A DNA stretch of 64,000 nt from Oscillospiraceae bacterium (lineage in GTDB: Bacteria > Bacillota > Clostridia > Oscillospirales > Acutalibacteraceae): the NCBI GenBank assembly GCA_015066445.1, contig SVOK01000006.1:4766-68765 (forward strand), written 5' to 3'. Shown here in pieces: positions 39,210 to 59,057 of this stretch; the first letter of the stretch is position 1, and each line of letters begins with the position of its first letter. A program made the position numbers and the translations under genes. Below the pieces are notes generated by a model. The model did no database searches. It saw only the letters and a program-made list of their open reading frames with translations, and was not told the DNA's origin.

Positions 39210-42200
39210 TTATTCAAAAACCTGACCTTCCCATTTAAGGGCACGTGAACGAACAAGGTCTGCAAAGCTTGTGTAGAAGCTTATATCATCGATATGGAGA
39301 GACTTGCCTGTAAGCTCACCGTTTCTGTTGTAGAAGGTAACCTTAATGCTGATAATCTGATTATAATCAAGCTCAGCATTGTCAATTGTGTAACCGTCTT
39401 TTTCAACAATGAACATATTTTCCTTAGGAATTACAACCCAACCACGGAAACCGTCAGGAACAACAAGCACACCTGTCTTCTTGGAGATAACGCCGTACTT
39501 ATCTATAAGATAGTACCACTTATCGCCGTACTCCCAATACTCTGTTGCAGTGCCTGCAGAATCAAGCACAGAAAGGTCGAGCTCAGTGTCCCCAGCTCCC
39601 TTAGGAGTCTCAACCCAGAAAGCAGTACCTGCACCGATAACAAGCTCGGGATCTGCACTAGTAGCAGCAAAATTAATGAAGCTTTCGCCCTCAGGCATTG
39701 TAAGCTTTAAGTTGCGCTCGTCGAATGAATAGTCAGTACGCTCAATAACAAGGTTTTCTGAGAAGTCTGTAAGACCTGCATTCTTCTTGTAGCCAGAACA
39801 GTCATTTGCAACTATCATATTTGTGTTCTCAAATGAGCCTGCATCATAGGTTGCAAGAAGTCCTTCAAGACCGATATCCTCGAACAACTTGTCGGTATCA
39901 TAAATAAGTGAGAAATCGTCAATAACGAAAGTGTGGTCAAACTTCTCGCCTATATCTTCATTACACTTACTACGTGTGAAGTAGAAACCAAAACCTGTGA
40001 GGCTATTAGCTTTAATGAACTTAAACCAGTCGGTCTTAACAGAACCGTAGGACTGACCAACAGCATTTGTATCATTGAATATCATATAAACAGTACCTGA
40101 GAAAGCTTTGCTGAAACTAATGCCGTCTTTACTCTGAATAATAGTTTCGCCGTCATCGCTGATAGCATAAACCTTACCGTAAAGGTAGTTGGTAGCACCA
40201 TTTACACGTGAACCAAAACCAATTTTGTGAGCCTCGGTAGGCATATCAGGAACTGTTACGTGATAGCTGTAGCCCTTAACGTTGTGTATCTGCTCAACAC
40301 CTGTGATATCTACCTTGTAGGTAATTTCCTGAGCAGGAAGGTTAGCCTTCTTTATTGTAAGTGCCATACCCTTACCGTCGGGTGAATCATTATCAACAAT
40401 TTCCTTGTCGAAATTTGCGGTATTGTGCCAGCTATATGTATTTGTGCCTTCGCCTGTACCGTTGTTTACAACAACAACATTGGGGCCGTCATAAGGCTCT
40501 TCAATTGTGTATTCGTGAACAGCTATACCGCTGACAATACCCTCAGTGCTTACAGCAATAGCCTTAATTGTGGTAGCCTTTTTAAGCTCTATGTAGGAAG
40601 CATCTTCCTGACCGTTACCCATACTGTAGGTCTCGTAAAGAGTACCGTTTGTGCACTCGCCATTTTCATAAGTGGGGTCAGTGCCGTCAGTTGTGTAGTA
40701 GATTGCGCAGCCATCGCCTGCATAAAGGAATATCTGAGTATCCATTCTAACAGCATCTGCGCCGGGGTCAGCAGTAGGAGCCATCGGACGCTTAGGCTCT
40801 TTATTCATATCTTCAACAAACTTATTAAGATCTGCAATAGCTATAACGTTATCTACGACAAAGCTCTTGTTATACATAGCAGAGTGGCTCTGATAGAAGC
40901 ATATCTGCTTAAAACCGTTTGTCTGAACAAATTCACGGAAGTTATAACGGAAGGTATCTCCCCAGTCACCACGAACACATTCGCCCTCTAAGGAGAATAT
41001 AAGATAACCTTCAAAACCGCTAAGTTTGGGATATTTACCAACATCGTACTCTGTAAAGTCTTGAGTTGAGGTGTTATAAGAATAGCTCTTGCCCTTGAAA
41101 GCATACTTTTCTCCGTTGATACAGGGAGAAAATGTGAGATTCATACCCTCAGGTACGCTTACCCAAAAAGCAAATGCCTGATGAGCTGCCCAGGTTGCAT
41201 TGTCAAGATTGTTGGCAAACTTAACATTCCACATACTCTGTCCTGTACCGCCAAGACCTAAATACTTAACAGCGGTACCGTAAGGAGACATATTCTCAAC
41301 AAGAGTCTTTGTTGATGTCATACCGTCATTAGAACCGTCACTCTTAACAGTTGAGGTATCCTCACAAGGGTTAAGAACAGTAACATTAGGCTGTGTATCG
41401 GGTAAGAAATCGTATTTATAGGTTGTTACAAGTGACTGCTTACCATCCTTATAAGCAATGGCTTTCAAGGTTGCAGGAGCAGTTGTAATAACAGGCTTAT
41501 TGTTAGCATCATATTTTGCGCTGGTATTATCAGGAGCTGTGCCGTCTAAGGTGTAGAAAATCTCTGTACCCTCTTCAGCAGAAAGATCAACCTTCTGGTT
41601 TTTAGCAACCAAACCTGAAGTAATCTTAGAAGTAGGGGCTGCAACAGCGAGATTAAATCTGTCAGCAAGACCTGCCGCATCGTCAAAATAGCAGGTGATA
41701 TCGTCAACAACAATTGCCTTACCTGTTTCCTGACCGAAAACATAAGCCTTTAAACCTTTAAGACCGCCGAATTCGTCCATAAATGCGTCCCAGGTCCATC
41801 TTGTATTAATACCTGTTCCCCAAAGCTTCTTAACAGCATTTGCATCGTCTGCAGGGAGGATATAAACGAAATAACCCTTAAAGCCGCCTACAAATGAGGT
41901 CTTGTTCTTGCTAACGAATTCGCCATCCTTGCTGATAGCGTAAAAATCGCCGCCTTCCCAGCCATAAACATATTCGTTGATACGTAAATGCCATTGAACT
42001 GCTCCGCCTGAAGAAAGTTCAGGAAGTTCAACATACATTGAGATAGCTGTAATATCCTTAGGATTATCAATAGTATTAATTCTAAGGTTAGCTTCTCTTG
42101 CTGGAGTAGCAGTCTGTGTGCTGGTCATATTTATTGCTTTACTGCCTGTAACCTCATTATCCACATAGGTAGATGTATACGTATATATACTACCTATATT

Positions 42201-42350
42201 ATTACCGGTACCGTCACCGTTGTTTAAAACAACAGGATCGGGAGCTGTGTCGGCAAAGACAAACATACCGATACCGCAGGATGTTAATACTACGGCAATA
42301 ACAGTAAGTATTGCGATAAAACGCAGCTTAGAGTTTTTCATAGTTTTCAT
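39210..42350 (-). CDS. secreted 1046-aa protein: four copies of an unrecognised ~190-aa module plus two chitobiase/Fn3-associated-like linkers
   Basis: N-terminal signal/anchor KLRFIAILTVIAVVLTSCGIGMFVFA. IFYTLDGTAPD and IYYTTDGTDPT motifs. Module signatures are listed in the findings. Confidence 0.7.
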   Translation of the reverse strand: MKTMKNSKLRFIAILTVIAVVLTSCGIGMFVFADTAPDPVVLNNGDGTGNNIGSIYTYTSTYVDNEVTGSKAINMTSTQTATPAREANLRINTIDNPKDITAISMYVELPELSSGGAVQWHLRINEYVYGWEGGDFYAISKDGEFVSKNKTSFVGGFKGYFVYILPADDANAVKKLWGTGINTRWTWDAFMDEFGGLKGLKAYVFGQETGKAIVVDDITCYFDDAAGLADRFNLAVAAPTSKITSGLVAKNQKVDLSAEEGTEIFYTLDGTAPDNTSAKYDANNKPVITTAPATLKAIAYKDGKQSLVTTYKYDFLPDTQPNVTVLNPCEDTSTVKSDGSNDGMTSTKTLVENMSPYGTAVKYLGLGGTGQSMWNVKFANNLDNATWAAHQAFAFWVSVPEGMNLTFSPCINGEKYAFKGKSYSYNTSTQDFTEYDVGKYPKLSGFEGYLIFSLEGECVRGDWGDTFRYNFREFVQTNGFKQICFYQSHSAMYNKSFVVDNVIAIADLNKFVEDMNKEPKRPMAPTADPGADAVRMDTQIFLYAGDGCAIYYTTDGTDPTYENGECTNGTLYETYSMGNGQEDASYIELKKATTIKAIAVSTEGIVSGIAVHEYTIEEPYDGPNVVVVNNGTGEGTNTYSWHNTANFDKEIVDNDSPDGKGMALTIKKANLPAQEITYKVDITGVEQIHNVKGYSYHVTVPDMPTEAHKIGFGSRVNGATNYLYGKVYAISDDGETIIQSKDGISFSKAFSGTVYMIFNDTNAVGQSYGSVKTDWFKFIKANSLTGFGFYFTRSKCNEDIGEKFDHTFVIDDFSLIYDTDKLFEDIGLEGLLATYDAGSFENTNMIVANDCSGYKKNAGLTDFSENLVIERTDYSFDERNLKLTMPEGESFINFAATSADPELVIGAGTAFWVETPKGAGDTELDLSVLDSAGTATEYWEYGDKWYYLIDKYGVISKKTGVLVVPDGFRGWVVIPKENMFIVEKDGYTIDNAELDYNQIISIKVTFYNRNGELTGKSLHIDDISFYTSFADLVRSRALKWEGQVFE

Positions 42351-42433
42351 TTCTCCTTTTTAAAATTTATATGATTTTATATTTAATAAATTAAATAACG
42401 AAATTTTGGTGTACAAATTCACATTGTACTGTT

Positions 42434-42552
42434 CTGTCATTACGAGCGATAGCGTGGTAATCCGTCGCTCCTGTCATTACGAGCGAAGCGTGGTAAGCCG
42501 TTTCCCTTTTGAGATTACGGATTGCTTCGTTGCTTTGCTCCTCGCAATGACG
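42434..42552. repeat. composite palindromic element: two direct copies plus one inverted copy
   Basis: CTGTCATTACGAGCGAtAGCGTGGTAAtCCGT (42434-) and CTGTCATTACGAGCGAAGCGTGGTAAgCCGT (42471-). Inverted relative ACGGATTGCTTCGTTGCTTTGCTCCTCGCAATGACG (42517-42552). Confidence 0.7.
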
Positions 42553-42757
42553 ATATTGGGGTGATCCGTTTTTCTGTTAGTATCGTAAAACTCATACAAC
42601 CCCGAATCTGTAATTCCGCAGAGCCGAATTATAAATTCCGAACTATATAATGCAACAATTTATCAAAAAAAGGATACAAAATGACAATTGAATATTTAAA
42701 TAAAGACGGCTTCGCCGCCACTTTCTCCTCAAGGAAAAAGCTTTTTTCTTCTCCACG

Positions 42758-42839: not shown

Positions 42840-45800
42840 TTATTTAACGTACTTAGCAGCCATGTCTGCGATAGCTTTAGCAGTTAATGTGTAATTATAC
42901 TCGCTCATAAGCTTATCAAGACCGAAGCTACCGAAGTTACCAGCTGATACAGGATAATCATAACCGCCGTCATAGAAGGTGCGGAATGTATAGAACAATA
43001 TACCGCCACGCTGTGACTCGGGGATTAAGTCTGTATTAGCAAAGAAATCATCGAACCAAGCAATCTCTTCTGCGATGCTTGCGTCTGTACGAGCAGGAGT
43101 ACCTTCAGCAGTCTTACCGCAGTAAGTTGTGGGTAATACCCAGTACTTAACGTCTGCTCTGTTGCCGGTATTTTCCTTCATTGCATTAAATGTGTTTGTA
43201 AATGCAGTCTTCTCATCGTCTGTATCTATACCATACTTATCGAAGCCGATATCGGTAACATAAGCATAGGTTTCAGGAGTAGCTGCAGGAATAGGGCCTG
43301 CTTCGAAGTCAGGATTACCTACAACTTCATAAACAGAAAGAACAGCGAGTACACGCTTGCCATAGGTATCACGGAGATACTTGGTCATAGTAGCGTACTG
43401 AGACTGTGACATATACTTGGATGCGGTCATAAGGACTTCTTCGGTATGGAAGCCAACAACCTGATTCCAAACGCCCTGAGCCTTATACTCATTGATAGCA
43501 TCGTCAAGAGCTGTCTTCCAAGCCTCGTTAATCTCGGTAGCAGCATTATCATAGCCGCCGTCCTTAGTACCGAATACAGGCTCGCCTGCGAATGTCTTAG
43601 AAATATACATCCAGCCTGTGCCGCCGTTTTGCTTCATCTGTGAGAGTGCGTACATATCAAGGCTTGTGTAAGCATTAAGAACATTGGATTCAGCTGCAAC
43701 ATCAGATGCATAGTAATCCCAAACACCATAATCACCGTGGTAGAAGCCTACCATAACGTCAGGATATTTTGCAAGTGAATAATCAAGCTCGGGAGCTTCA
43801 AACTTAACGCCCAAATTCTGCTTTCTACTTGCGATAAGCTCAGCGGCTGTATCAATAAAGCCATTATTGTCAATGTCAGCATTATGATAAGCTAAAAGAG
43901 TTTTAGCATCAGCATTAAACTTCTTAAGACGAACCATATCACGAACATCTACAACAGTATCGTTATTTGCGTCACCAGGTGTGGTTTCTGCACCGATTTC
44001 TGCCATAAAGACTGAAAGACTGTCAACAAACTGATGTCCACCGAAAACAAATTCTGTGGCCTTAACACTTGTACCCCACATATAGTAATACAAGCCCTTG
44101 AAGCCAACATTGTTAATATAATCTGCAAAGGACATTTCAGCGCCGTCTTTACCAACAATTGCATTCTTAAGAGGAATAATAATATAACCCTCGAAACCGT
44201 CACCTAAGGTTTTGCTGCCTGTAAGAAGCATAGATTCCTTAGTATTGATATCATAAGCTATATATGAGGTTTTAACCGGATAAGCTGAACCGAAGTTTGC
44301 TGAAAGCGGAACATTACCGCCCTCTATCTTAACATAATATACTAAAGCTTCTTTAGCGTTGATTTCATCAGCAGTTAATGTCGAAGCATTAGCAATATTA
44401 AATTCATAAGCACCATCAGTTCTGTGTTCAACACCATTATCTGTAAATTTGAATGCAGGAGCACCGTTAGATGTTGTAGTCATAGAAGCAGTATAAACAC
44501 CGCCAGTACCATATTTGCCAGCATAATCTGCAACTAATGATGAATATTGACCGAATGCCTTGCTGTTAGGAGCGGCATAATTAGCAAAATATTTATCAGT
44601 ATCTAATTGGTCATTAATAGTCTTGATAATAGGATTATCACCATAAACTACAGCAATATCATCAAAATCAAAATATGTGCCCTCATAATCTGCAACAGCA
44701 CCTGAATAGGTTACCCAGAAGTTGAAGCGATCAATAACACTTGTTTTTGAGGAATAAAGCTCCAAGAACTCAGTCCATGAATGCTCACCCGCAGTGCTGC
44801 CCCAAGTAGCATTTACAGCAAGATCTCTATCAATCATTACAACAACAGTACCTGTGAAATTCTGGTTGAAGCCAGTACTTGAGTTGTATTTGGTGATTTC
44901 ACCGCTATCCGAAACGAGATATATACCAGTTGCTCTTAATCCGTTTTGCTGTGCATTCAACTGATATGTAATATAGAAAGGCTTATTGTTAGGAGTAACA
45001 ATGTTTGCTCTGTAGGTAAATGCAACTACATTACGTAAATCCAAGCCAGCAGTATTAACAACATTGTAAACCTGTGGATTAGAGTCGGCTGTAGTTCCAT
45101 CTTCTTTTTCATAATTTGCAAGAGCAAAAGTCATTCTTGCGGCATAGCCGTCTTCAGAGTCGTTAGCTACATATTCAATGGCAGACTTATAATTAGTGCC
45201 AGTGCTGGATGTATTACCATTAGCACCGCTTAAATTGCTTATAATATGGGTACCGGTGAGCATTTCTTCTCTTTCAGCCAATGCTGCAGCCTTATCAGCC
45301 TCCGCCTTAGCAGCCGCACGCTTAGAAATGTTTATATCCGAAGAATAATCTGCTACATAAGTATCAATATCATCATAAATAAGTCTGAAAGTATCATAAG
45401 TAACTTTTACATCAGGAAGATTATTGGTATATAAAGCTCCACCTGTACTAGTGTAGAAACCACCAATATCGGACATACTCTTAATTACACCGCTATTAAC
45501 TGATGTAATGTATTCCTCAAAGCTATATACCTTATCGCCTGCGCTAGCGCCATAAGAATCAACAACCAAAGCATCGTTGTCAAATTCCATTATGATTATA
45601 CCCTCAAAGCCATTAGGAACCATTAATGAAGATTTTTGATTTTTCGATTCAAGTGTTCCGCCTGCTGTTTCAGGATCATCATCAACTCTTACAGCGGTAG
45701 TTTCATAAGTAGCAACTACTGTACCGTCATAGCTGATAGCCTTCATTGAGCCTAAGAAACCGGGTTTATTAGAACCAACCAAATGAGGAGTTATTGCCTT

Positions 45801-47429
45801 AAATGCACCATCAGGAAGTCCCTCAACCTTAATTTCAAAGCTTATACCATTAACATTTTCAGGATTTGCAACAGTGTAATTACCGTCTTTGGTAGCATTG
45901 CCTGATGTGAAATACAAATAATCGCTGTTCTGCTCAACAGCAGTTAATCCTTTTGGAGCCATTGTGAAAACAAACTTATCATTAATGCGCTCGCTTGTCA
46001 TACGGGAATACTGAGTTGCAGTTGTTGTATATCCATTTTTGGGTCTGAACCAACCTGTATAATCACGGGTACCGTCTATAAATACAGGGTTCTTTGGATT
46101 CATAATTTCATCTATAGCAGTAGTATCATAAATAAAGCTAAAGCTACCGAAGGTGATAGAATCGCCTACCGCACCGCCAGCTCCAGAATAAGTGCTTAAA
46201 TTATAATCACCTGTTTTTGAATTGATGTATTCTTCCCAGGTTACTGCATTGTCTGCAGATTTACCAACCATTACAGCTTTTTCATCAAATACCAAATAAG
46301 CTGTACCGCAGAAATTAGCAGGAACAGTAGCAGCTGTAGAAACCACACCACTGTCACTTACCAAATAATATGTACCGGCAAATGTATCTTTATTACTGTT
46401 AAATGCAAGGAAGAAGCCTACATCACCTGTCTTCTTGAGCTCAATACGTATACCTTTTGCTTTTTCAATAGCAAACGGTAAACCGCTTCCTCTTGTTTGA
46501 ACAAAATCGTTTCTAATAGCAACCTTACCATCATTTGCTGCAACTTTAGCAATGGTGAATTTTGAACCCTTGCCCTCTAAACCGTCAAAGTCAACTATTT
46601 CTGCATGACCGTTGGAAGTAGTATCAAATTTACCGTTGCCGTTCCAATAGTTCATTGCTTCGTCCAACTCATAAGAACGAACCGATGCAGTATTGAAGTT
46701 ATAAGAAATAACATCTGCGCCTGAAACATATTTAGCGAAATCTTCAACAGTTTTTGTAGAAACAGTTAAATCGCCAACATACCAAGCTTTTCCGATCATA
46801 TCCTCGGTATAATTTGCGCGAAGCATCAAGGGCTTAAAGCAGTTATCCTTGAAAGCATCTACTGACTTAACGGGATTACCCTCAGCGTCTTCCCAGTCAC
46901 CAACGCCGTAATTATCAGCATTGGAAATATCATAAATAATATAACCCTTAACGCCTGCAGGGATTCTGTAATAGCCGTTATTAGACTTAATTGGTAAAAT
47001 ATCGCCGTTATCAGCATCTAAGAAATAGATATAACCTGCACCTAAGAAAGCGTTATAGGTACCGTTGGAACCATAATACTGGAATCCGAGCTCTAAATCC
47101 GAACCGATTTCATTGGCTACATAATAAGCCACCGTATTAACAGATGCTGCCTGCTCAGCAGTAAGCTCTACCTTACTTGAAAAAGGTAACAAGCCTGCTT
47201 TTGCCTTTTGCGGAGCAATACGATATACGGTTTTACCGTCATAATTAGCAAGAGCCATATTCTCATGGTCTGCTCGCCAAGATTTCATGGCTGTATCATT
47301 AACTATACAGTAGCTAAGATCAACCTCTGCGGTTTCGGCACTAACAGCAAAGCCTGTTAAGCAAACGGAAAGAACCATTGCTAAAGACAATACTAATGCC
47401 AAAACCTTTTTGAAATTAAAATTTTTCAA
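42840..47429 (-). CDS. secreted ~1529-aa protein: five copies of the unrecognised module + dockerin + C-terminal TIM-barrel-like domain
   Basis: TTG 47429 lies 6 nt after AAGGAGAGG and gives the signal peptide MKNFNFKKVLALVLSLAMVLSVCLTGFAVSA. The track ORF extends to ATG 47504. Confidence 0.72.
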   Translation of the reverse strand: MKNFNFKKVLALVLSLAMVLSVCLTGFAVSAETAEVDLSYCIVNDTAMKSWRADHENMALANYDGKTVYRIAPQKAKAGLLPFSSKVELTAEQAASVNTVAYYVANEIGSDLELGFQYYGSNGTYNAFLGAGYIYFLDADNGDILPIKSNNGYYRIPAGVKGYIIYDISNADNYGVGDWEDAEGNPVKSVDAFKDNCFKPLMLRANYTEDMIGKAWYVGDLTVSTKTVEDFAKYVSGADVISYNFNTASVRSYELDEAMNYWNGNGKFDTTSNGHAEIVDFDGLEGKGSKFTIAKVAANDGKVAIRNDFVQTRGSGLPFAIEKAKGIRIELKKTGDVGFFLAFNSNKDTFAGTYYLVSDSGVVSTAATVPANFCGTAYLVFDEKAVMVGKSADNAVTWEEYINSKTGDYNLSTYSGAGGAVGDSITFGSFSFIYDTTAIDEIMNPKNPVFIDGTRDYTGWFRPKNGYTTTATQYSRMTSERINDKFVFTMAPKGLTAVEQNSDYLYFTSGNATKDGNYTVANPENVNGISFEIKVEGLPDGAFKAITPHLVGSNKPGFLGSMKAISYDGTVVATYETTAVRVDDDPETAGGTLESKNQKSSLMVPNGFEGIIIMEFDNDALVVDSYGASAGDKVYSFEEYITSVNSGVIKSMSDIGGFYTSTGGALYTNNLPDVKVTYDTFRLIYDDIDTYVADYSSDINISKRAAAKAEADKAAALAEREEMLTGTHIISNLSGANGNTSSTGTNYKSAIEYVANDSEDGYAARMTFALANYEKEDGTTADSNPQVYNVVNTAGLDLRNVVAFTYRANIVTPNNKPFYITYQLNAQQNGLRATGIYLVSDSGEITKYNSSTGFNQNFTGTVVVMIDRDLAVNATWGSTAGEHSWTEFLELYSSKTSVIDRFNFWVTYSGAVADYEGTYFDFDDIAVVYGDNPIIKTINDQLDTDKYFANYAAPNSKAFGQYSSLVADYAGKYGTGGVYTASMTTTSNGAPAFKFTDNGVEHRTDGAYEFNIANASTLTADEINAKEALVYYVKIEGGNVPLSANFGSAYPVKTSYIAYDINTKESMLLTGSKTLGDGFEGYIIIPLKNAIVGKDGAEMSFADYINNVGFKGLYYYMWGTSVKATEFVFGGHQFVDSLSVFMAEIGAETTPGDANNDTVVDVRDMVRLKKFNADAKTLLAYHNADIDNNGFIDTAAELIASRKQNLGVKFEAPELDYSLAKYPDVMVGFYHGDYGVWDYYASDVAAESNVLNAYTSLDMYALSQMKQNGGTGWMYISKTFAGEPVFGTKDGGYDNAATEINEAWKTALDDAINEYKAQGVWNQVVGFHTEEVLMTASKYMSQSQYATMTKYLRDTYGKRVLAVLSVYEVVGNPDFEAGPIPAATPETYAYVTDIGFDKYGIDTDDEKTAFTNTFNAMKENTGNRADVKYWVLPTTYCGKTAEGTPARTDASIAEEIAWFDDFFANTDLIPESQRGGILFYTFRTFYDGGYDYPVSAGNFGSFGLDKLMSEYNYTLTAKAIADMAAKYVK
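42843..43802 (-). other. conserved uncharacterised ~320-aa domain (copy 1), putative glycoside-hydrolase-like barrel
   Basis: Shares EYKAQGVWNQVVGFHTEEV, LSVYEVVG, YAYVTDIGFDKY and VKYWVLPTTY with the 49542-50681 protein. Confidence 0.6.
43812..43979 (-). other. dockerin module (type I-like, two EF-hand-like Ca loops)
   Basis: GDANNDTVVDVRDMVRLKKF ... NADIDNNGFIDTAAELIASRK. The first loop fits the D-x-N-x-D-x3-D-x2-D pattern exactly. Confidence 0.7.
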
Positions 47430-47600
47430 GATTTTCCTCTCCTTTATAAATTTTTTTATATTTAATGCAAATACTTCGGTTGCCCGATTACGTTCCTTTT
47501 GCATTTAATACCAGAATTTATTGGTCTTACGACCGTTTTTATCCGTCCCCCGATTTAGGAGAAGATTTGCTACGGGTGCGGATAAAATTTTGTTTTTTTC

Positions 47601-49438: not shown

Positions 49439-49507
49439 TTCTTTCACCTTTCTTTATTTTAATTATAAACTGCTGATTTTACTCAACAGATAATTACTAA
49501 TTTGTAG

Positions 49508-50681: not shown

Positions 50682-50983
50682 AAGTCCTCCTTAGCAAAAA
50701 TTATAATTTTTTACGTTATAATTTTATCATTTTTTTATCAAAGTAACAATATCATTATGTTTCAGGTTTTTTGCAAGATGTTGCACGATTATCCGTAAAA
50801 AAACACAAGACTATCGGCGAAATGTCAAAATGTACTAATCAAGTCTGTCGCTTTTTGATAAAATGCACAAAAGGAAGTGTGATTTTATCAATTTTATAAA
50901 GAAAGTCAAGAAAACTGTTATCAACATAAAAACAACCCTTAGTGTCAGTTGTTGCACATAATTTGCTATATGTTGCATGTTGC

Positions 50984-51011
50984 TTGACTTTTTGTGTTTT
51001 TTTGCTATAAT
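50984..51011 (+). promoter_or_regulatory. candidate promoter of AraC gene 51178
   Basis: -35 TTGACT (50984-50989), 16-nt spacer, extended -10 TGcTATAAT (51003-51011). Confidence 0.45.
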
Positions 51012-51177: not shown

Positions 51178-52029
51178 ATGTTTATTTTAAAACATTCCAT
51201 AAATACCAGCTTCAATGTTAATACTTCCTTTTTTGTGACTCAATGCGGTTATGAGGACTGCAAGCCCTCTCACAGCTACGGTCCTACAGCAAGGGATTAT
51301 TATTTAGTGCATTTCATCTTTTCAGGTAAAGGCACTCTGGAAATTTACGGAAAGACCCATGAGCTTTCCGCGGGTCAGGGCTTTTTTATCCCTTTAGGCA
51401 CTCCTACCACCTACACCGCCGATGAAAAAGACCCTTGGTTTTACGGCTGGGTTGGCTTTTCCGGCGAGCATTCCAACCAGCAGATAGCCTTAAGAGGTCT
51501 CTCCAATGATAAATTTATTTTCAACTTTGCCGATTGCGATCAGGTTCTCGAGTCTTTAAAGAGACTTGTTGCAAGCTGCGGTAAAGAAGGTAACGGTTTT
51601 ACCGCAATTTCAAAGCTTTTTGAGCTTTTCAGCTTTATAAATCCCGAGCACGATTCTTCGCTTTTACAGTCGGGTGTTATAAACGAGGTTATTCTTGATA
51701 TTGAGAAGAACTACGCTAAAGATGTTTCGGTTGAGGATCTTTCTAAAAGATATAACATCAGCCGAAGTCAGCTTTTCAGACTGTTTAAAACCAAGCTTGA
51801 TATATCTCCTCAGCAGTATATCAAGCATTACCGCATAAATCACGCGGCTGACCTATTACGAAGAACAGACCTTACCATAGGTCAGGTTATGGAACAGTCA
51901 GGCTTTTCAAACATTTCCAATTTTTCCCGTCAATTCAAGTCGGTTTACGGCAGAAGCCCCAAGGATTTTAGAGAATATATTGCTAATCATATCAAATCCT
52001 TAGAGGGCACAAACTCTTCAGAAAATTAA
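51178..52029 (+). CDS. AraC-family transcriptional regulator (cupin sensor + double HTH)
   Basis: C-terminal VEDLSKRYNISRSQLFRLFK and IGQVMEQSGFSNISNFSRQFKSVYGRSP. Confidence 0.85.
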   Translation: MFILKHSINTSFNVNTSFFVTQCGYEDCKPSHSYGPTARDYYLVHFIFSGKGTLEIYGKTHELSAGQGFFIPLGTPTTYTADEKDPWFYGWVGFSGEHSNQQIALRGLSNDKFIFNFADCDQVLESLKRLVASCGKEGNGFTAISKLFELFSFINPEHDSSLLQSGVINEVILDIEKNYAKDVSVEDLSKRYNISRSQLFRLFKTKLDISPQQYIKHYRINHAADLLRRTDLTIGQVMEQSGFSNISNFSRQFKSVYGRSPKDFREYIANHIKSLEGTNSSEN

Positions 52030-52085: not shown

Positions 52086-52120
52086 AAAAGGGTAGTAACT
52101 TAACCGTTACTACCCTTTTA
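52086..52120. terminator. bidirectional terminator
   Basis: 13-bp stem AAAGGGTAGTAAC / GTTACTACCCTTT with a 6-nt loop. Confidence 0.75.
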
Positions 52121-52155: not shown

Positions 52156-53436
52156 TTATCTTTTACCCTCTAAAACTGCGTTCTGATACTCCATATAATC
52201 GTTGTATTGTTTAACAGCAGCTGTTCCGCCGGGCTTAACCCTGGCATCAGGAGTTGTGAAAAAGCCCGAGAACATAAAGTTCATAATTTTTTCAACATAG
52301 GGCCTTACCGTTTCCATCTGTTGAATAAAGCCTTCTTCACCGTCCATTCCGCCGTTTTTATAACGTGGAACAAGCAGACTGATAGCTCCGTTTCCCGCAA
52401 GATTAACATTAGCACCCGTAAAGTTAAACGCCTCGCAGTTTGCCCACAAATGCTTATTACTCTTTTGGCAATAATCAAGCAGCGTGATATTTTGTTGACG
52501 GCTGTCAGCCAATGTAAATCTGTTCTGGCCAACAAAATCCTGCGGCATCATAATATCGAACAAATCGTGCTTTTCGATGTATTCGATAAATTCTTTACCT
52601 GGTTGACAGTATGGTGACATCAAAATAGGCTTTGCAGGAGAAAGCTCTCTTGCCTTCAGGGTGTTGCGATTGAGCTTATCCCAATATTCGGGTCTGAATT
52701 TTTCCATATTAAGTTCGCAGGCAAAATACCAGCCATAGAAGGATTTGTGAGAATGATATCTCTCAAAAAGTTCTTCTAAATCCTCGGGCTCACCGGTTCT
52801 TCCGTAGTTGTTACCAACTCCTATAAAAACATTCTGACCGTTTTTCTCTGCAGCAGATAAAATAGCTTCAATAGGGTCCTTTGCAAGAATATCTGACTTA
52901 GGATATAATTTCGAGCCATCATAGTGGGCAGTAACCTTTAATTTATCAACGTTATAAAGGCGGTCATATTGATGTGAAACCATAATAATTATACCGGTCT
53001 GACGCATATTATGAAGGTCGTTAATATAGTCAGTCCAGTCCTGGTCTAACATCGCTTTAACTTCGGGTGTGTAAGTTATGCAGCATTTTCTGTCATTCGG
53101 TGGTCCCAACATAACAAAGCCGCCATCAAGAAGAACAGGATGTTCCTTTACAACCTCAAATTCAACAATCTCACCGTTTATATCAAGGGTATTTTTTCCG
53201 ATTTTGCCCTTTATATCGGGGAAATACTTAACAAAACCATACTCACCTTTTTTAACAAAAACCTTTTGGTTGAAAGTGACCTCTCCATTAAGGTGAATGC
53301 GAAGCTCCATCTCGCCGTCCTCATCGCCCGTGTTTTTAAACTGAACACGAACTTCGAGTGGATCTCTTTCCTGAATGGGCGAATATGGAAGAAGCTTTAT
53401 ATCAAAATCTTTATCAATCTTAAAACAGGCGCTCAT
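52156..53436 (-). CDS. DUF4434-like putative glycoside-hydrolase-fold protein with N-terminal beta-sandwich
   Basis: ATG 53436 follows GGAAG. The core has the FYGWYFACELN motif that I associate with DUF4434 barrels. No signal peptide. Confidence 0.45.
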   Translation of the reverse strand: MSACFKIDKDFDIKLLPYSPIQERDPLEVRVQFKNTGDEDGEMELRIHLNGEVTFNQKVFVKKGEYGFVKYFPDIKGKIGKNTLDINGEIVEFEVVKEHPVLLDGGFVMLGPPNDRKCCITYTPEVKAMLDQDWTDYINDLHNMRQTGIIIMVSHQYDRLYNVDKLKVTAHYDGSKLYPKSDILAKDPIEAILSAAEKNGQNVFIGVGNNYGRTGEPEDLEELFERYHSHKSFYGWYFACELNMEKFRPEYWDKLNRNTLKARELSPAKPILMSPYCQPGKEFIEYIEKHDLFDIMMPQDFVGQNRFTLADSRQQNITLLDYCQKSNKHLWANCEAFNFTGANVNLAGNGAISLLVPRYKNGGMDGEEGFIQQMETVRPYVEKIMNFMFSGFFTTPDARVKPGGTAAVKQYNDYMEYQNAVLEGKR

Positions 53437-54703
53437 AAAGCTCAACTTCCTTTGGTGTATGAATTTCTCCGTTCCATTGAACGAGAGCTGAATACATAGC
53501 GCTGGGGAATGCTGTTTCGGGTCTGTGCCAGGTTGTCTGAACAATGCCGAGACTACCCTTTCTTCTGCACAATTTAACCATATTTTCGGTTCCCTTTCTG
53601 TTTATAAAGGGAGAATAAACCGTCTGGTATCCGCGTGACTCAAAGAAGTCAACGTCTGCCCAATAATCGCCGATATCGTTATGTGTCCAAACATTGATAA
53701 GAATGTTCTTAGGTAACATATCTGCAATAATGGGGTTGGGCTTCCATGTAAGAGAATCCATAGAAGAATAGAGCATATCGCCCCACATAACCATTCTGGT
53801 GCCCTTTTCCTGGAGATAGGTGTTGAGTCGGCAAATATGATTTGCAAAAAGGATATCCGCAGGCTTTGTTCTGTCCTCTTCGGTTGAACCAAAACCGAAG
53901 CATTTATCACAGGAAGTGTGGAAATAAGGTGGATTTCTGAATGTTTCAAGAAGGTCATCCATAATATCACGCAGATATTCCTGTGTATCAGGATTCTCGG
54001 TTGCAAAGCACCAGCCGCCAGGCACCCACATATCAGAAAGGTCGGGTCTCTGGTCTAAGACAACGTGCTTTCTTGATGCGATTCTGCTCCAACCTGCATG
54101 GCTTGTAAGGTTTTGGCAAGGCAGGGGAGTGATATGTAATTTATCAATAGCAAGGCTGATGATTTCCTCAACTGCTTCTCTTGTATATGCCTTGGGCCAA
54201 GCTGCATAAGGGCGCTTTTTATACGGGAACATACCCCAGAATTCCATAAAGATATAATTGTAGCCGGCAAGGGCTGCCTTTATAATTCTTCTTTTGATAT
54301 CCTCGGGATTAGTATCTTCTTTTTCTGTTCCGTCGTCAGGATTAAATATGCAAAGGTGCATACCACGGAATTTAATATCGGGCTCATCAATGATTTTCAT
54401 ACAAGGAATAGCATCGCCGTGCTTTTCCTTTAAAACTGCGAGCATTTTAAGAGCATTTGAAAGCCCCTCCTCACATTTAACGCAAACAGAAATACCGTCA
54501 TTTGCAATATCGAGAACATAACCGTCTTCCCCGATATCGCAGCAGCATTTCTTCTCCTCGATTTCGAGACTGTCAAATCCGCAAAGCGAAAGAAGATAGG
54601 AATAATCTCTCTCTACGGGAGCGAAATTTGAAACAAGCTTACCGCCGCTAAAAGTGCCTTCTTTAAGTTCGAATTTTTTAGGATTTCTAATCATATTGTT
54701 CAA
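53420..54703 (-). CDS. divergent GH20-like (beta-N-acetylhexosaminidase fold) protein
   Basis: IIDEPDIKFRGMHLC parallels the GH20 catalytic-domain entry motif. NYIFMEFWGMF, ITPLPCQNLTSHAGW, YFHTSCDKC and MVMWGDM parallel successive GH20 beta-strand motifs. No signal peptide. Confidence 0.45.
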   Translation of the reverse strand: MNNMIRNPKKFELKEGTFSGGKLVSNFAPVERDYSYLLSLCGFDSLEIEEKKCCCDIGEDGYVLDIANDGISVCVKCEEGLSNALKMLAVLKEKHGDAIPCMKIIDEPDIKFRGMHLCIFNPDDGTEKEDTNPEDIKRRIIKAALAGYNYIFMEFWGMFPYKKRPYAAWPKAYTREAVEEIISLAIDKLHITPLPCQNLTSHAGWSRIASRKHVVLDQRPDLSDMWVPGGWCFATENPDTQEYLRDIMDDLLETFRNPPYFHTSCDKCFGFGSTEEDRTKPADILFANHICRLNTYLQEKGTRMVMWGDMLYSSMDSLTWKPNPIIADMLPKNILINVWTHNDIGDYWADVDFFESRGYQTVYSPFINRKGTENMVKLCRRKGSLGIVQTTWHRPETAFPSAMYSALVQWNGEIHTPKEVELYERLF

Positions 54704-54709: not shown

Positions 54710-55459
54710 TTATAGCATTTTAATTCTGGGTTTATATTTTTCTAAATATGCCGCATTCTTCTCGTCACCACCGGGTGTGTTTGCGCTTGACCATACAGGT
54801 GGTGTAATTCCTCTGTCGATACACTGCTTAACACACTCGATTTCCAAGAGATGCGCAATATAGAAATCGATTATATTTGATACGGGAGCTATGGGAGTAT
54901 CAAGTCCCGGTACGGTTACTACCGCATCGCCTACGGGGTTGAAATCCTCAATGCAAACGTCTGCATAATCATTAAGATTAGTTTTATTGGGGTGACGGAT
55001 AAAATGGTCAAGCGGCATTTCCTTCTGCCACGCCTCACTCGAAACCGCAATAATCTTAACTCCGTTTTTCTTGGCCTCCATAGCAGCATCAATAGTTGCA
55101 GGATTGATACCTATATTATGGAAAATAATCAGCACATCATCTTTTTTAAGGTCATAATATTTTACGATAGATGCGCCGTAATTAACCGTTCTTTCAAGCT
55201 CCAAATATTTAAGCGCCTGATTAAATACCGAAAGTCCTGTTTCCATTAAAGGATTAATGCAGGAAAGTCCGCCTGCTCTGAAAAACATTTCGCCCACAGG
55301 AAGTGTTGTGTGACCACCGCCGCCGTAAACATTTATAAGGCGGTCATTTTCAATTGCATCTGCCATTAAAGATGCCGCTTTTCTGATGTTTTCACTTTGG
55401 GTGTCATTAACTTTTTTGAAATTTTCCATTAAACTTTCAAAATAGCCAAAATCATTCAT
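54710..55459 (-). CDS. single-domain SIS (phosphosugar-binding/isomerase) protein
   Basis: LINVYGGGGHTTLPVGEMFFRAGGL and VLIIFHNIGINP follow the SIS pattern. Paralogue of 56334-57056. Confidence 0.65.
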   Translation of the reverse strand: MNDFGYFESLMENFKKVNDTQSENIRKAASLMADAIENDRLINVYGGGGHTTLPVGEMFFRAGGLSCINPLMETGLSVFNQALKYLELERTVNYGASIVKYYDLKKDDVLIIFHNIGINPATIDAAMEAKKNGVKIIAVSSEAWQKEMPLDHFIRHPNKTNLNDYADVCIEDFNPVGDAVVTVPGLDTPIAPVSNIIDFYIAHLLEIECVKQCIDRGITPPVWSSANTPGGDEKNAAYLEKYKPRIKML

Positions 55460-55477: not shown

Positions 55478-56323
55478 TTATTCAGATAATAATTTTTCTT
55501 CTATTTCATTTTTTTGAGGTATTGAATTTAAAACATAAGGCTTTGTAACGCTAAGTCCCGATGCTGTAACAGCGTATTTACAAGCGCTTTCTAAATCCAT
55601 TCCATCGGCTAAGCAGACCGCTAAAACGCCGTTAAAGGTATCTCCCGCCCCCGTAGTATCTACAGCTTTAACTTTAAGGGCTGGTATAAAAGTTTCTTCG
55701 TTTACCATACAACCCTTATCCCCCAAAGTTGTAACAACATTTGCAAAACGTTTAGGGTTTATTGCTGTTTTTTCTTGCTCATTAGGGGTTACAATATATA
55801 CATTTTCCGCGATACTGTCGCTGATTTCCCTGATAGGTGCAGGATTAAGTATAACCTTAACATTATGCCTTTTTGCGATTTCCACCGCCGCTTCGTTTAC
55901 TTCATCAGGCACTTCGTGTTGAAGAAGTAAAAAATCGCTGTTTGCAATTTCTTTCTGGAAGGCTAAAACATCCTCTACTTCAAGCTCGGCACCAACATAT
56001 TCTGTAACACGGTTTTCACCGTTTTTATCGGTAAGAATAAAAGCAAAAGTAGTTCTTTTACCCTTTTTAGCAACCAAAAAATCCTTTAAATTGTTTTCCT
56101 TTGCGGTGTTGCGGCATTTTTCGCCATCAGAATCGTCACCTATAGCACCCAAAAAGGAGACTTCCGCTCCCATTCGTGCGCAGGCTATTGCCTGATTAAT
56201 GCCCTTGCCGCCAATTTCTTCAAAGCATTCTTCTGCTACAAGTGTTTCGCCTTTCGAGTGAAAATGGTCTGCATACATAAATACCGAATTTCCGCAAATT
56301 CCTATAACTGCAATTTTAGCCAT
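55478..56323 (-). CDS. PfkB-family sugar kinase (ribokinase-like)
   Basis: GGKGINQAIACARMG (PfkB signature 1) and DTTGAGDTFNGVLA (signature 2). Confidence 0.85.
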   Translation of the reverse strand: MAKIAVIGICGNSVFMYADHFHSKGETLVAEECFEEIGGKGINQAIACARMGAEVSFLGAIGDDSDGEKCRNTAKENNLKDFLVAKKGKRTTFAFILTDKNGENRVTEYVGAELEVEDVLAFQKEIANSDFLLLQHEVPDEVNEAAVEIAKRHNVKVILNPAPIREISDSIAENVYIVTPNEQEKTAINPKRFANVVTTLGDKGCMVNEETFIPALKVKAVDTTGAGDTFNGVLAVCLADGMDLESACKYAVTASGLSVTKPYVLNSIPQKNEIEEKLLSE

Positions 56324-56333
56324 TTTTTATACC

Positions 56334-57056
56334 TCACAGGTGCTTTATGCGTGGCATATATTCTTTAATAAGCGCTTTGTTATAGTCCGCACCGCCCTCG
56401 ATATTGCCGCTCATATAAATAGGTACTTTTTTGCCGCTTTTAGCCGCATTTTCTGCCGCCTCTAACAAAACCGCCTGCAAAATAAAGGAGCTGGCAGCCG
56501 TAGAAACACTGCCCATTTTAACATCTGTACCTGTAATATCCATAACCGCATCGCCGTGGGGCACGCAGTTATCAATATAAATATCGGATATTTCGTATAG
56601 CTTTTCACCCTCGGTTTTATCCTCAAAATAAGCACTAGAGACTACCGATATGTTTTTTATACCGTTTTTAGCAGCCACCTTTGCCATCTCAACCGGAACG
56701 GCATTTTTACCGCTTGTTGATACAACAATAAGGGTATCATTTTCGGTAAGGCAGTATCTTTCAAAAACGCTTTCGGCAATACCGCTCATTTTCTCCATTT
56801 TACTGCTTTTTGCTGCACCGTTATGAAGCATTAAATCGGTATCGAGCATAGCGCTTACATTAACAAGACCGCCTGCTCTGTAAAAACAGTCAAGCCCTAT
56901 TAAATGCGAGTGTCCGCAGCCGAATATGTAAATAATACCGTCGTTTTTTATGGTTTCAGCAACAAGCTCTGCCACCGCCATAATTTTTTCTCCCTGAGTA
57001 TTTTTTACATCCTCAAGAATATCGGTTAATTTCCCATAATACTCTTCAAAAATCAT
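56334..57056 (-). CDS. single-domain SIS (phosphosugar-binding/isomerase) protein
   Basis: IIYIFGCGHSHLIGLDCFYRAGGL and TLIVVSTSGKNAVPVE. Confidence 0.65.
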   Translation of the reverse strand: MIFEEYYGKLTDILEDVKNTQGEKIMAVAELVAETIKNDGIIYIFGCGHSHLIGLDCFYRAGGLVNVSAMLDTDLMLHNGAAKSSKMEKMSGIAESVFERYCLTENDTLIVVSTSGKNAVPVEMAKVAAKNGIKNISVVSSAYFEDKTEGEKLYEISDIYIDNCVPHGDAVMDITGTDVKMGSVSTAASSFILQAVLLEAAENAAKSGKKVPIYMSGNIEGGADYNKALIKEYMPRIKHL

Positions 57057-58084
57057 TTTTTAAGCACTCTTTTATAATTTCTGCCTATATTATCCCAAAG
57101 CTCAAGCGGGTCTTTAGCCGCTACAGAAGTACCATAACCACCACGGTATGTCCAGGTAGCAAGACGGTCAACTCCTAATTCTTCGTACATATCGACAACC
57201 TTATCTATCTGACTGAAATCATCAGGGCGCTTATTGTAGCCCATAAGCCAACGTTCACTCTGCTTGCCGTACTTCTTAGCCATAGCAACTGTTCTTTCTG
57301 TGATTTCACGGAAGAAGCTCTCTGGCAATGTCCAGTTAATAATTGTGGTTGAGAATACATCGAAATAAGGGCAAGCGGCTACCATTTCCCAGTTATCATA
57401 ACCTCTTAGCTCTGTTACATAATAGCTGTTAAGTGTTGCGTGAACACAGCAGGTAATTTCAAGGTTGGGGTTATACTCTTTAAGAGCTTTTGAAGTATCC
57501 TCAAGAGTATAAAGTGCTTCTCTCCAACGGAACTGCTTAACATCATCGTTCATAAACTTAGGCATTTCATAGCCATAGTATTCTTCAAACTTTTTCATAC
57601 ACTCAGGACATCTGCAAGCCCAGTCATCACCTGCACCGCCTGTAATAGAAGCGTAAGCCTTAGGATAAGCATAATGCGGCTCATCCCAGAAGAATCCGTC
57701 AACCTCGGTATTCTTAGCAAGCTTGAGGCAAATATTCTTGAAATAATCTCTGAAAGAATTTGTATTAAAGCAAGCAGCATTCAATACCTCGCCTGTGTAT
57801 GCCGATACCTGACGGTGATGAATATTGTTCTGTAAGAATAAACTTACCTGCTCACCGCCGAAGTATTTGCCAATACCCCAAGTATCTGCAAGCACTCTAA
57901 GACCTAACTCGTGAGCCGCTTTAACTATGTTGTTGATATTCGGGAACCAGAAATCCATATCAAACTCTGTGATAGCCAAAATTACTGTATCACAGCCGTG
58001 TTCCTTCATTTCCTTAAAATCCTCAATTGCGTGCTCAACATAACCGAGTCCATAATAGCTTACCGCTGTATGTTTAATTGACAT
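57053..58084 (-). CDS. cytoplasmic protein of unknown function, TIM-barrel/glycoside-hydrolase-like by pattern
   Basis: Alternating beta/alpha pattern with DTVILAITEF, LRVLADTWGIG and GFFWDEPHY. ATGA overlap with the downstream SIS gene. Confidence 0.35.
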   Translation of the reverse strand: MSIKHTAVSYYGLGYVEHAIEDFKEMKEHGCDTVILAITEFDMDFWFPNINNIVKAAHELGLRVLADTWGIGKYFGGEQVSLFLQNNIHHRQVSAYTGEVLNAACFNTNSFRDYFKNICLKLAKNTEVDGFFWDEPHYAYPKAYASITGGAGDDWACRCPECMKKFEEYYGYEMPKFMNDDVKQFRWREALYTLEDTSKALKEYNPNLEITCCVHATLNSYYVTELRGYDNWEMVAACPYFDVFSTTIINWTLPESFFREITERTVAMAKKYGKQSERWLMGYNKRPDDFSQIDKVVDMYEELGVDRLATWTYRGGYGTSVAAKDPLELWDNIGRNYKRVLKK

Positions 58085-58120
58085 ATCGAAACCTCCAAAT
58101 TTTCTTTTAATTTTATTATA

Positions 58121-58150
58121 TACCTATTATCCCGATAGGTAAACCTATTA
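58121..58150. promoter_or_regulatory. candidate operator: inverted plus direct ACCTATTA repeats in divergent promoter region
   Basis: TACCTAT tatcccg ATAGGTA (58121-58141), with ACCTATTA at 58122-58129 and again at 58143-58150. Confidence 0.35.
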
Positions 58151-58238
58151 ATCGTTCAAAAAAGTGGACAAATCAAAACTTGACATTGTCTTGATTTCAA
58201 TGTATAAATTAATTAATAACTATTGGAAGTGAATATCT

Positions 58239-59057
58239 ATGTTTTTCGGAGAAAATGAAATTTCCTTAGAATTATTAGGCGTTTTTAAAATCAAGCGTGA
58301 AGCCTTTAATCACAGAAGCTTTACCTCTCGCAGTTATGACAGCCTCAGCATAAGACTAAGCGGAAGCGGAAAATTTGAAACTAAAACCAAAACCGTTAGC
58401 ACACAAAAGGGTGACATTCTTTACATACCGAAAAATGCCGATTACATACAGTCTACATTGGGCGAAGATATTATTGCCATACATTTTATTAATTACAGCT
58501 TTACAAAAAATGATGAAATTGAATGTATGTCAGTAGAAGATTCACATTTTTTGGAAGAAACCTTCCGTCAGATGTATGACGTATGGAAAGAAAAAAAGCA
58601 AGGACACCGTTACCTTTGTATGTCCCTGCTATACAATATTTTATATTTTTTAAACTGTCAGAAAACAGAAAGCATTATAGACTCTATAACTCACGACAGC
58701 AAAATCAATACCGTTATGGATTATATACACACCAATTACCGAAATGGCGAAATCTCTGTTTCACAGCTTGCTGATATGTGCGCAGTTTCCGAAACCTATT
58801 TCCGAAAGCTGTTTAAAAAAATCCACGGTGTTTCTCCACAGCAATATATAATAAACCTGAAACTCGAATTTGCGTCTCACCTGCTTGGCAGTAATCTATA
58901 TACTGTTTCTGAAGTGAGCCGCAAATCGGGCTTTAACGATTCTAAATATTTCTGCCGTTTGTTTAAAAACCGTTTTGGTACAACACCAAAAAAATATCAA
59001 ACCCTATTCCAACTCAATTCCCCGCCTATCAGAGAAAACAAAAAAGCGCTTCAGTAG
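58239..59057 (+). CDS. AraC-family transcriptional regulator
   Basis: C-terminal VSQLADMCAVSETYFRKLFK and VSEVSRKSGFNDSKYFCRLFKNRFGTTP. Upstream TTGACA (58180-58185), 17 nt, TATAAA (58203-58208). Confidence 0.85.
   Translation: MFFGENEISLELLGVFKIKREAFNHRSFTSRSYDSLSIRLSGSGKFETKTKTVSTQKGDILYIPKNADYIQSTLGEDIIAIHFINYSFTKNDEIECMSVEDSHFLEETFRQMYDVWKEKKQGHRYLCMSLLYNILYFLNCQKTESIIDSITHDSKINTVMDYIHTNYRNGEISVSQLADMCAVSETYFRKLFKKIHGVSPQQYIINLKLEFASHLLGSNLYTVSEVSRKSGFNDSKYFCRLFKNRFGTTPKKYQTLFQLNSPPIRENKKALQ

Follow-up and report, generated by a model that had tools for sequence, protein, structure and literature searches.

A candidate glycan-acquisition locus in an uncultured rumen bacterium: probably two neighbouring operons

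Genes and control regions of the locus

We analysed a window of 64 kb (the whole stretch of DNA examined, from contig SVOK01000006.1 of the Oscillospiraceae assembly GCA_015066445.1), in which about 20 kb had been put forward, from the letters of the sequence alone, as one previously uncharacterised Gram-positive glycan-acquisition system; we now read these 20 kb as probably two operons. The gene complement of that sequence-only reading was found in full: four co-directional genes for surface proteins, six genes for cytoplasmic enzymes and two AraC regulators. Surface and cytoplasmic genes lie on the minus strand, and the two AraC genes lie on the plus strand, each divergent from one operon. 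Direct reading of the six cytoplasmic enzymes revealed no signal peptides. Contigs near-identical to the window came from ruminant gut metagenomes, and relatives were filed under metagenome-assembled genomes (MAGs) of Acutalibacteraceae, Ruminococcus or Oscillospiraceae. In public records (MAG proteins MBE6808424-35) the surface proteins and g343 carry the label 'hypothetical protein'. The genes are as follows (aa, amino acids).

39210-42350, minus strand: g1046, a secreted giant of 1046 aa with four modules and two CHB_HEX_C_1/Fn3_assoc domains
42840-47504, minus strand: dockerin giant (g1554/g1529), a 1554-aa open reading frame with a public call of 1529 aa, secreted, with five modules, a dockerin-like segment and a C-terminal barrel
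47726-49447, minus strand: solute-binding lipoprotein (SBP), family 1, AlgQ2/LplA-like
49542-50681, minus strand: barrel lipoprotein, with a lipobox, a Lys-rich then acidic linker and a barrel at about 49545-50390
51178-52029, plus strand: AraC283, 283 aa, cupin sensor domain (PF02311 and PF12833), divergent from the surface operon
52156-53544, minus strand: DUF4434 protein (PF14488, 93 bits); the public call is 426 aa, starts near 53436 and overlaps the stop of the GH20-like gene
53420-54703, minus strand: GH20-like protein (PF00728, 39.7 bits)
54710-55459, minus strand: SIS249, a UPF0309/NagS-family SIS protein with an altered anion site
55478-56323, minus strand: PfkB281, a ribokinase-like PfkB-family kinase (PF00294, 174.7 bits)
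56334-57056, minus strand: SIS240, a UPF0309/NagS-family SIS protein
57053-58084, minus strand: g343, a 343-aa cytoplasmic protein with WDEPH and CxCxxC motifs
58239-59057, plus strand: AraC272, 272 aa (Pfam HTH_AraC and HTH_18), divergent from the cytoplasmic operon

Control elements were identified at both divergent spacers and at the ends of the operons.

39160-39189, minus strand: strong intrinsic terminator with a 13-bp stem, ending the surface operon
50757-50785, minus strand: candidate AraC283 operator, half-sites TGCAACAT and TGAAACAT 21 bp apart, abutting the -35 element of the surface-operon promoter
50962-50977, minus strand: second TGCAACATNNNGCAAA copy, beside the AraC283 promoter
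50984-51011: AraC283 promoter, 11/12 consensus positions
52086-52119, unstranded: bidirectional terminator, a symmetric hairpin with a 14-bp stem and flanking A and T runs, ending both AraC283 and the cytoplasmic operon
58115-58143, minus strand: promoter-like site TTTACC-17-TATAAT upstream of g343, 10/12 positions, a consensus match only
58164-58185, minus strand: candidate operator TGTCAAG-N7-TTGTCCAC in the AraC272-g343 spacer, about 20 bp upstream of the cytoplasmic-operon -35 element

The spacer between AraC283 and the lipoprotein gene carries the 16-mer TGCAACATNNNGCAAA twice, at the candidate operator and beside the AraC283 promoter, and these were its only exact matches. The TGAAACAT half-site lies 21 bp from one of the copies and abuts the -35 element, and the elements of this spacer were conserved in five species. 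TGTCAAG-N7-TTGTCCAC was conserved in three species and was unique in the window, with 0 chance matches expected. Neither operator motif was present in the control region of the other operon. The two regulators, which share 26 % identity, have distinct candidate operators, as had been proposed, and cross-regulation of the two operons was rejected on the ground that the motifs do not cross-occur.

Distribution of the surface cassette and the cytoplasmic core

The surface cassette, comprising AraC283, the barrel lipoprotein, the SBP, the dockerin giant and the CHB_HEX giant, recurred in about 14 loci of uncultured Acutalibacteraceae and Ruminococcaceae (L005-L013, L027, L028, L114, L115 from the human gut, and L117), either complete or cut by a contig end. 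An AraC283-type gene adjoined the cassette in all of these loci, across which identity of the lipoprotein dropped to about 35-38 %; where gene calls were available, the sequenced regions included no called permease. Whether the cytoplasmic tier accompanies the cassette could be judged in six loci of other species, in which the sequence extends 4 kb or more upstream of the AraC gene; the tier was present beside the cassette in one of them (L007). Housekeeping genes lay upstream of the cassette AraC gene in L027, L114 and L117, with an MGH1/trehalase-like glycosidase also beside the AraC gene in L027, and no homologues of the tier were found upstream of it in L012 and L013. The cytoplasmic tier thus adjoins the cassette only in the window species and in one other lineage.

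A rearranged paralogous cassette with its own AraC gene (L028) was present in a genome of the window species (GCA_052831925.1, the genome that also holds L002), and the cytoplasmic tier was absent from it. The L028 cassette occupies 5160-18748 and consists of an AraC gene, a GH4 gene (GH, glycoside hydrolase family), a lipoprotein barrel, a 1211-aa dockerin giant, a 1287-aa CHB_HEX giant, a 306-aa barrel without a signal peptide, and an SBP. The cytoplasmic GH4 and the signal-less barrel are inside the operon, the SBP is 57 % identical to that of the window, and a GH3 gene lies upstream.

Alignment of the window with L007 revealed a mosaic of identities, with g343, SIS249, the GH20-like protein and the DUF4434 protein at 92-99 %, SIS240 at 83 %, AraC272 at 74 % and PfkB at 71 %; overall, tier proteins were 71-99 % identical and surface proteins 31-65 %. 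Either recombination or very unequal selective constraint could account for this pattern. In L007 the flanking M23 peptidase is kept, at 39 % identity; since the tiers are adjacent in both the window species and L007 with this peptidase retained, the juxtaposition is inherited in two lineages.

The cytoplasmic core, comprising g343, the UPF0309/NagS-like SIS proteins and the PfkB kinase, was widespread in Clostridia. There were 494 detectable homologues of g343, of which the 120 listed were 74-95 % identical across Clostridia, and one of its 90 %-identity clusters had 3307 members. In other loci SIS240 was always paired with the PfkB kinase, and SIS249 travelled with g343. Neighbours of g343 were counted in 80 metagenome loci.

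SIS249: 53/80 loci
238-aa protein: 50/80 loci
GFO/IDH/MocA oxidoreductase: 48/80 loci
SIS240 and PfkB pair: 27/80 loci
GH20-like protein: 24/80 loci
ABC permeases: about 20/80 loci
DUF4434 protein: 1/80 loci
surface cassette: 0/80 loci

Larger forms of the cluster contained additional genes. In Ruthenibacterium (L029), g343 was accompanied by permeases, MurQ, a BadF-type kinase, GH20, GH89, an N-acylglucosamine 2-epimerase-family protein and a PF12831 oxidoreductase, and a Thermoanaerobacteraceae g343 locus carried a 536-aa SBP with two permeases. Separately, on ENA TONG22-1 scaffold_8 (L004, 10001-11797) g343 was 100 % and SIS249 95 % identical to those of the window, in a context of AraC, GH89, a canonical GH20, a 230-aa protein and a GFO/IDH/MocA oxidoreductase, which suggests that the g343-SIS249 pair has recently moved between rumen bacteria by horizontal transfer.

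Surface proteins and cytoplasmic enzymes

Residues 105-373 of the lipoprotein and residues 1252-1538 of the dockerin protein were 30 % identical (E 2e-30), placing a second barrel in the latter.

42843-43790, minus strand: C-terminal barrel of the dockerin protein, by similarity to the lipoprotein barrel

A barrel-like domain had been claimed twice in the two giants; it does occur twice, but the copies are the lipoprotein and the C-terminus of the dockerin protein. The AlphaFold2 model of the barrel (predicted local distance difference test, pLDDT, 88; predicted template modelling score, pTM, 0.87) has eight strand-helix units and is a (beta/alpha)8 barrel. Foldseek comparison with the PDB returned generic TIM-barrel similarity (template modelling score, TM, up to 0.56) and no close solved structure. 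Glycosidases featured prominently in the matches, as did KDO8P synthase and PrpB; the first match was GH18 Endo T (TM 0.51), an endo-beta-N-acetylglucosaminidase, and the further glycosidases were of GH2, GH53, GH72 and GH10. Across 109 full-length barrel domains, residues G114, [D/E]118, E119, T176, D177, Y183, W211 and G247 were invariant, all at the C-terminal ends of strands 4, 6, 7 and 8. The [D/E]118-E119 pair, invariant in 109/109 domains, follows strand 4. An adjacent acidic pair after strand 4 is the arrangement of substrate-assisted enzymes of the GH18, GH20 and GH84 type, and the pair offers a lead that suggests GH18/GH20-style substrate-assisted chemistry. The classical clan GH-A mechanism was considered and rejected: the fold and the strand-4 Glu are present, but the clan GH-A arrangement is lacking because strand 7 bears no conserved carboxylate, W211 being its sole invariant residue.

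The barrel family showed no sequence relation to entries of Pfam, NCBIfam or the PDB. A Pfam scan of 26 members at E≤1 gave linker and transmembrane noise only, the lipoprotein barrel had no Pfam hit even at this threshold, and profile-profile comparison of the barrel family, the g343 family and the DUF4434 protein recovered no relation (probability below 1 %). The family is small, with 31 clusters in a word-indexed search and 266 representatives at E≤1e-3 among 1.84 billion. Its members occur as lipoproteins of about 400 aa, as proteins of about 300 aa that have no signal peptide, as C-terminal domains of 1100-1700-aa proteins, and as fusions with dockerin, Big_2 or ricin-type lectin domains. 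Both window lipoproteins have long, low-complexity tethers after the lipobox. The tether of the barrel lipoprotein is a Lys-rich run followed by an acidic run, a pattern kept across the barrel lipoprotein family, and that of the SBP is rich in Ser, Thr, Asp and Lys; the two probably act as spacers through the cell wall.

The repeated module, about 200 aa long, linked the two giants. A single-module phmmer query connected five copies (E 1.7e-12 to 2.7e-3), a hidden Markov model (HMM) built from the nine window copies detected 51 further copies in giants of other loci, and an HMM built from external copies only found exactly nine in the window (domain E 2.6e-10 to 3.5e-52) and none in the other ten proteins. 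The count of nine that had been read from the sequence, four in g1046 and five in g1554, is therefore solid. Pfam gave no above-threshold match to the module, a word-indexed search for homologues using the profile of the nine modules yielded just 3 proteins, and an NCBIfam scan found no match for either giant. Its AlphaFold model, of moderate confidence and built from nine sequences only, is an all-beta sandwich, for which the best PDB matches in Foldseek were all carbohydrate-binding modules (CBMs), namely CBM11, CBM27 and CBM22, then CBM4/16 and an alginate CBM. On this structural likeness we infer that the module is a CBM-like jelly roll of a new sequence family and that it may bind glycan. 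The domains of the two giants are placed as follows.

41649-42260, 40797-41414, 39864-40508 and 39234-39848, minus strand: modules of g1046 (residues 31-234, 313-518, 615-829 and 835-1039), external-copy HMM
41412-41621 and about 40515-40763, minus strand: CHB_HEX_C_1/Fn3_assoc domains of g1046, Pfam
residues 58-262, 267-468, 465-723, 743-966 and 968-1173, minus strand: modules of g1554, external-copy HMM
43809-43979, minus strand: dockerin-like segment of g1554 (residues about 1176-1232), PF00404 at 21.9 bits

The two small repeats noted earlier inside the 1046-aa protein are present but belong to known Pfam families, CHB_HEX_C_1 and Fn3_assoc. The type I dockerin assignment is borderline, the segment scoring 21.9 bits (E 2e-4) where PF00404 has its gathering cut-off at 22.9. 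Two D-x-[DN]-x-[DN] loops can be made out in its sequence, and in homologues the same position matched at up to 24.2 bits or was graded 'weak'. The window showed no cohesin. The binding lipoprotein belongs to family 1 of the ABC-importer SBPs, matching AlgQ2, AlgQ1 and others in the PDB at E 2.5e-32 (AlgQ2) to 4.4e-24, and its orthologues carry SBP_bac_1 and SBP_bac_8.

Both SIS proteins scored above the NF002805 cut-off of 135 (SIS240, 268 bits; SIS249, 227 bits). SIS240 matched 3cvj (E 2e-45) and NagS (9eol, E 7e-35) in the PDB, and SIS249 matched NagS at E 1.2e-30. NagS (SCO4393), an N-acetylglucosamine 6-phosphate (GlcNAc-6P) dehydratase related to MurQ for which a kinase supplies the sugar 6-phosphate, is the only characterised UPF0309 member (PMC12680351). 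All five NagS catalytic residues (H53, R64, E94, D179 and N228) are found in both window proteins, and SIS240 keeps 9/9 active-site residues. SIS249 carries the substitutions S54T, S91L, S119H and S121I, and its phosphate-binding S-x-S is replaced by H-N-I; the resulting H-[NT]-I-G motif was conserved in the 58 orthologues examined and hints at a non-phosphorylated or differently charged substrate. PfkB281 belongs to the PfkB superfamily by its PF00294 score. It was rejected as a true ribokinase, with 239.7 bits against the TIGR02152 equivalog cut-off of 299.65.

The GH20-like protein exceeds the PF00728 cut-off of 22.3 bits, and solved GH20 chains matched it at E 3.5e-12 to 4.8e-8. Its 'HTSCDKC' aligns with 'HVGGDEC' and 'HVGLDEV' of solved GH20s, so that the catalytic Asp-Glu is Asp-Lys, and a canonical functional GH20 hexosaminidase was rejected for this D-K pair. 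The pair (H-x-x-C-D-K) was conserved throughout the orthogroup, in 9 loci at 51-100 % identity (those named being the window, L007, L038, L079, L082, L092 and L101), and such conservation points to a new function and not to decay; D-E is kept in a second GH20 group found near g343. No Pfam hit above threshold was obtained for g343. Within its family, weak matches to DUF4434 recurred in 10/26 members (best E 4.3e-4), with others to GHL6, GH53 and GH42, and g343 is therefore probably a TIM barrel distantly akin to glycosidases. In the PDB, neither sequence nor profile searches gave a meaningful match for the DUF4434 protein, g343, the g343 family or the barrel family; NCBIfam had no match for the lipoprotein, the DUF4434 protein or g343; and literature searches on DUF4434 and UPF0309 returned nothing relevant. 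The sequence-only reading had called almost every component unassignable. This describes the lipoprotein barrel, the module and g343, none of which has a Pfam hit above threshold, but it is overstated for the locus, as the binding protein, SIS proteins, kinase, GH20-like protein, DUF4434 protein, CHB_HEX_C domains and dockerin can be assigned to families.

Readings of the locus

Glycan acquisition, the role first proposed, remains the most economical reading of the locus. We favour, with a probability of roughly 0.6, a reading of the 20 kb as two neighbouring, separable sugar-utilisation operons, each under its own AraC regulator, in an uncultured rumen host of the Ruminococcaceae/Acutalibacteraceae, because the two units are separately distributed, a terminator intervenes between them, their promoters are separate and their operator motifs differ. 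One 20-kb system, as initially envisaged, is not sustained by this distribution and control. That view had been made to depend on conserved co-localisation across genomes, where the tiers were mostly found apart; adjacency in a single genome overstated the unity of the locus.

Operon 1 (50681 to 39210) would be a surface cassette for capture and cleavage. The membrane-anchored lipoprotein has a (beta/alpha)8 barrel of a new family, and a second copy is found on the secreted protein with five CBM-like modules and a borderline dockerin, by which that giant is probably attached to a cohesin scaffold. The protein g1046 is a further secreted component with four CBM-like modules, and the AlgQ-like binding lipoprotein probably passes released oligosaccharides to an ABC permease encoded elsewhere. 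Operon 2 (58084 to 52156) is a local version of the module widespread in Clostridia. We infer for it that the Glu-to-Lys GH20-like protein and the DUF4434 barrel may trim the imported oligosaccharide, that the PfkB kinase may phosphorylate the released sugar, that SIS240, with its full NagS-like site, may convert the sugar phosphate by dehydratase/etherase-type chemistry, and that g343 may act together with SIS249. A hexosamine-containing substrate had been favoured for the whole locus. This lean is reasonable for the cytoplasmic tier, from the NagS/MurQ-like SIS family membership and the gene neighbours in related clusters, but is unsupported for the surface tier.

Several observations weigh against this reading. 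All source genomes are MAGs. Four ABC permease queries gave no tblastn hit in the 64-kb window at E≤0.01, in agreement with the earlier remark that the importer is missing. Assignment of the barrel as a glycosidase would follow from its fold and conserved acidic residues at a best TM of about 0.5, and the non-glycosidase TIM barrels KDO8P synthase and PrpB are among its Foldseek matches. For the module, model confidence is moderate (pLDDT 67, pTM 0.70) and the CBM matches, at E 4e-5 to 1e-3, have low TM of 0.3-0.47. In the cytoplasmic operon, Lys replaces the general acid/base Glu of the GH20-like protein (residues 266-267, codons 53903-53908), and a Clostridium NagS homologue, at 33 % identity, had negligible GlcNAc-6P dehydratase activity (PMC12680351). 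Finally, the two operons are adjacent in two diverged lineages, and functional coupling between them is possible.

Such coupling is the substance of the closest rival, which we consider doubtful: that both tiers serve one integrated pathway in which a single hexosamine-containing glycan is broken down, its oligosaccharides being released at the surface and then trimmed, phosphorylated and converted in the cytoplasm. Consistent with this, the arrangement in the window species and L007, with the flanking M23 peptidase, is inherited; cytoplasmic glycosidases occur next to or within other cassettes; the barrel has a [D/E]-E pair compatible with N-acetylhexosamine-type chemistry and, as its top structural match, a GH18 endo-beta-N-acetylglucosaminidase; and g343 modules elsewhere adjoin ABC importers whose large binding proteins fall in the same broad class. 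However, the tier accompanies just one of the six informative cassettes from other species and is missing from the paralogue in the same genome, none of the 80 g343 loci has the cassette, and in the window the operons are parted by a terminator, have a regulator each and share no operator motif.

A bolder form of the two-operon reading takes the five-gene cassette as a new, self-contained class of Gram-positive surface glycan-capture machine, with paralogous copies in uncultured Acutalibacteraceae of the rumen and human gut, a new GH family of [D/E]-E substrate-assisted type and a new CBM family, its modules arrayed in fours or fives. It further takes the neighbouring operon as an undescribed amino-sugar catabolic route widespread in gut Clostridia, with catabolic NagS-like SIS enzymes and a Glu-to-Lys GH20 variant of non-hydrolytic chemistry, e.g. 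phosphorolysis. Taken jointly, these claims are unlikely all to hold.

It is very improbable that the surface cassette is non-nutritional, remodelling or anchoring an envelope glycopolymer or extracellular matrix of the cell itself, or serving adhesion, in which case the barrel would act on the cell's own polysaccharide. In favour of this, the cassette lacks a permease and mostly lacks adjacent catabolic enzymes, its proteins diverge fast (31-65 % identity versus 84-99 % for neighbouring genes), and genes for cell-wall glycopolymer biosynthesis cluster at 21.9-31.9 kb of the window. Against it, AraC regulators with cupin sensors and AlgQ-type sugar-binding lipoproteins are typical of catabolic loci, the operon of the paralogous cassette includes a cytoplasmic GH4 as well as a cytoplasmic copy of the barrel, and dockerin-linked multi-CBM enzymes are typical of substrate-degrading complexes.

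Read as two operons, the locus resembles several known systems in part. Gram-positive polysaccharide utilisation loci (gpPULs) were defined for Roseburia/Eubacterium. Like them, the window locus co-localises a putative sugar-responsive regulator, a carbohydrate-binding lipoprotein and candidate extra- and intracellular glycan enzymes, and there are several paralogous loci per genome. Unlike them, it lacks genes for a permease or an ATPase, is made up of two units with independent distributions, and has a candidate extracellular enzyme and putative binding modules without CAZy or Pfam assignment; regulators and binding protein are present, permeases are absent, and the only above-threshold match of CAZy type is the Glu-to-Lys GH20-like protein. 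The Ruminococcus bromii amylosome is a cellulosome-type complex for a non-cellulosic glycan, built from GH13. With it and with the recently proposed cellulosome-type 'mucinolysome' of Limousia, assembled from the known families GH20, GH84, GH89, GH101 and others (PMC12997984), the locus shares a secreted candidate enzyme with a putative dockerin and tandem putative binding modules, and hosts of the same bacterial family or neighbourhood. It differs from both in its new barrel and new modules, and in its borderline dockerin.

The Sus-like polysaccharide utilisation loci of Bacteroidota likewise bind and cleave outside the cell, import, and finish inside under a dedicated regulator, with variable enzyme sets beside a conserved surface core. 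In the window that core is instead a lipoprotein enzyme, a binding lipoprotein and two giant multi-module proteins; there is no outer membrane and no SusC/SusD pair, the 12 proteins having no Pfam hit of that kind. As in NagS/MurQ systems, SIS240 and SIS249 are UPF0309 proteins, SIS240 has the complete NagS active site and a kinase gene is adjacent, but identity is about 30 %, SIS249 lacks the phosphate-binding serines and the kinase is of PfkB rather than ROK/BadF type. The GH20-like protein has the Pfam domain of GH20 beta-N-acetylhexosaminidases above threshold and aligns with their solved structures, yet departs from them in the Lys at the acid/base position across its orthogroup. In sum, the logic of the locus matches gpPULs and cellulosome-type complexes, yet its key surface parts have no family assignment and it encodes no transporter. 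Should the barrel prove to be a glycosidase and the modules glycan binders, a new family each of GHs and CBMs would be gained, in a recurrent surface cassette that lacks a transporter and belongs to Firmicutes abundant in gut and rumen but uncultured. In gut metagenomes the g343/SIS/PfkB module occurs very commonly; solving its function would fill a gap in amino-sugar or related sugar catabolism and give the first function for UPF0309 proteins outside Streptomyces.

Two further features of the window were noted. From reading of translations only, 21877-31931 contains a cell-envelope glycopolymer biosynthesis and export cluster, with an ABC-2 permease and ATPase, an 881-aa multi-glycosyltransferase, a UDP-galactopyranose-mutase-like flavoprotein, a UDP-GlcNAc 2-epimerase, a WecG/TagA-like transferase and an initiating sugar transferase. 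Two PF12831 FAD-dependent oxidoreductases lie at 31963-35426 and 6563-8386, one of them extended at its N-terminus by a CBM-like region and neighboured by an AraC/GyrI-type regulator and a short-chain dehydrogenase; PF12831 is also represented in the Ruthenibacterium g343 cluster.

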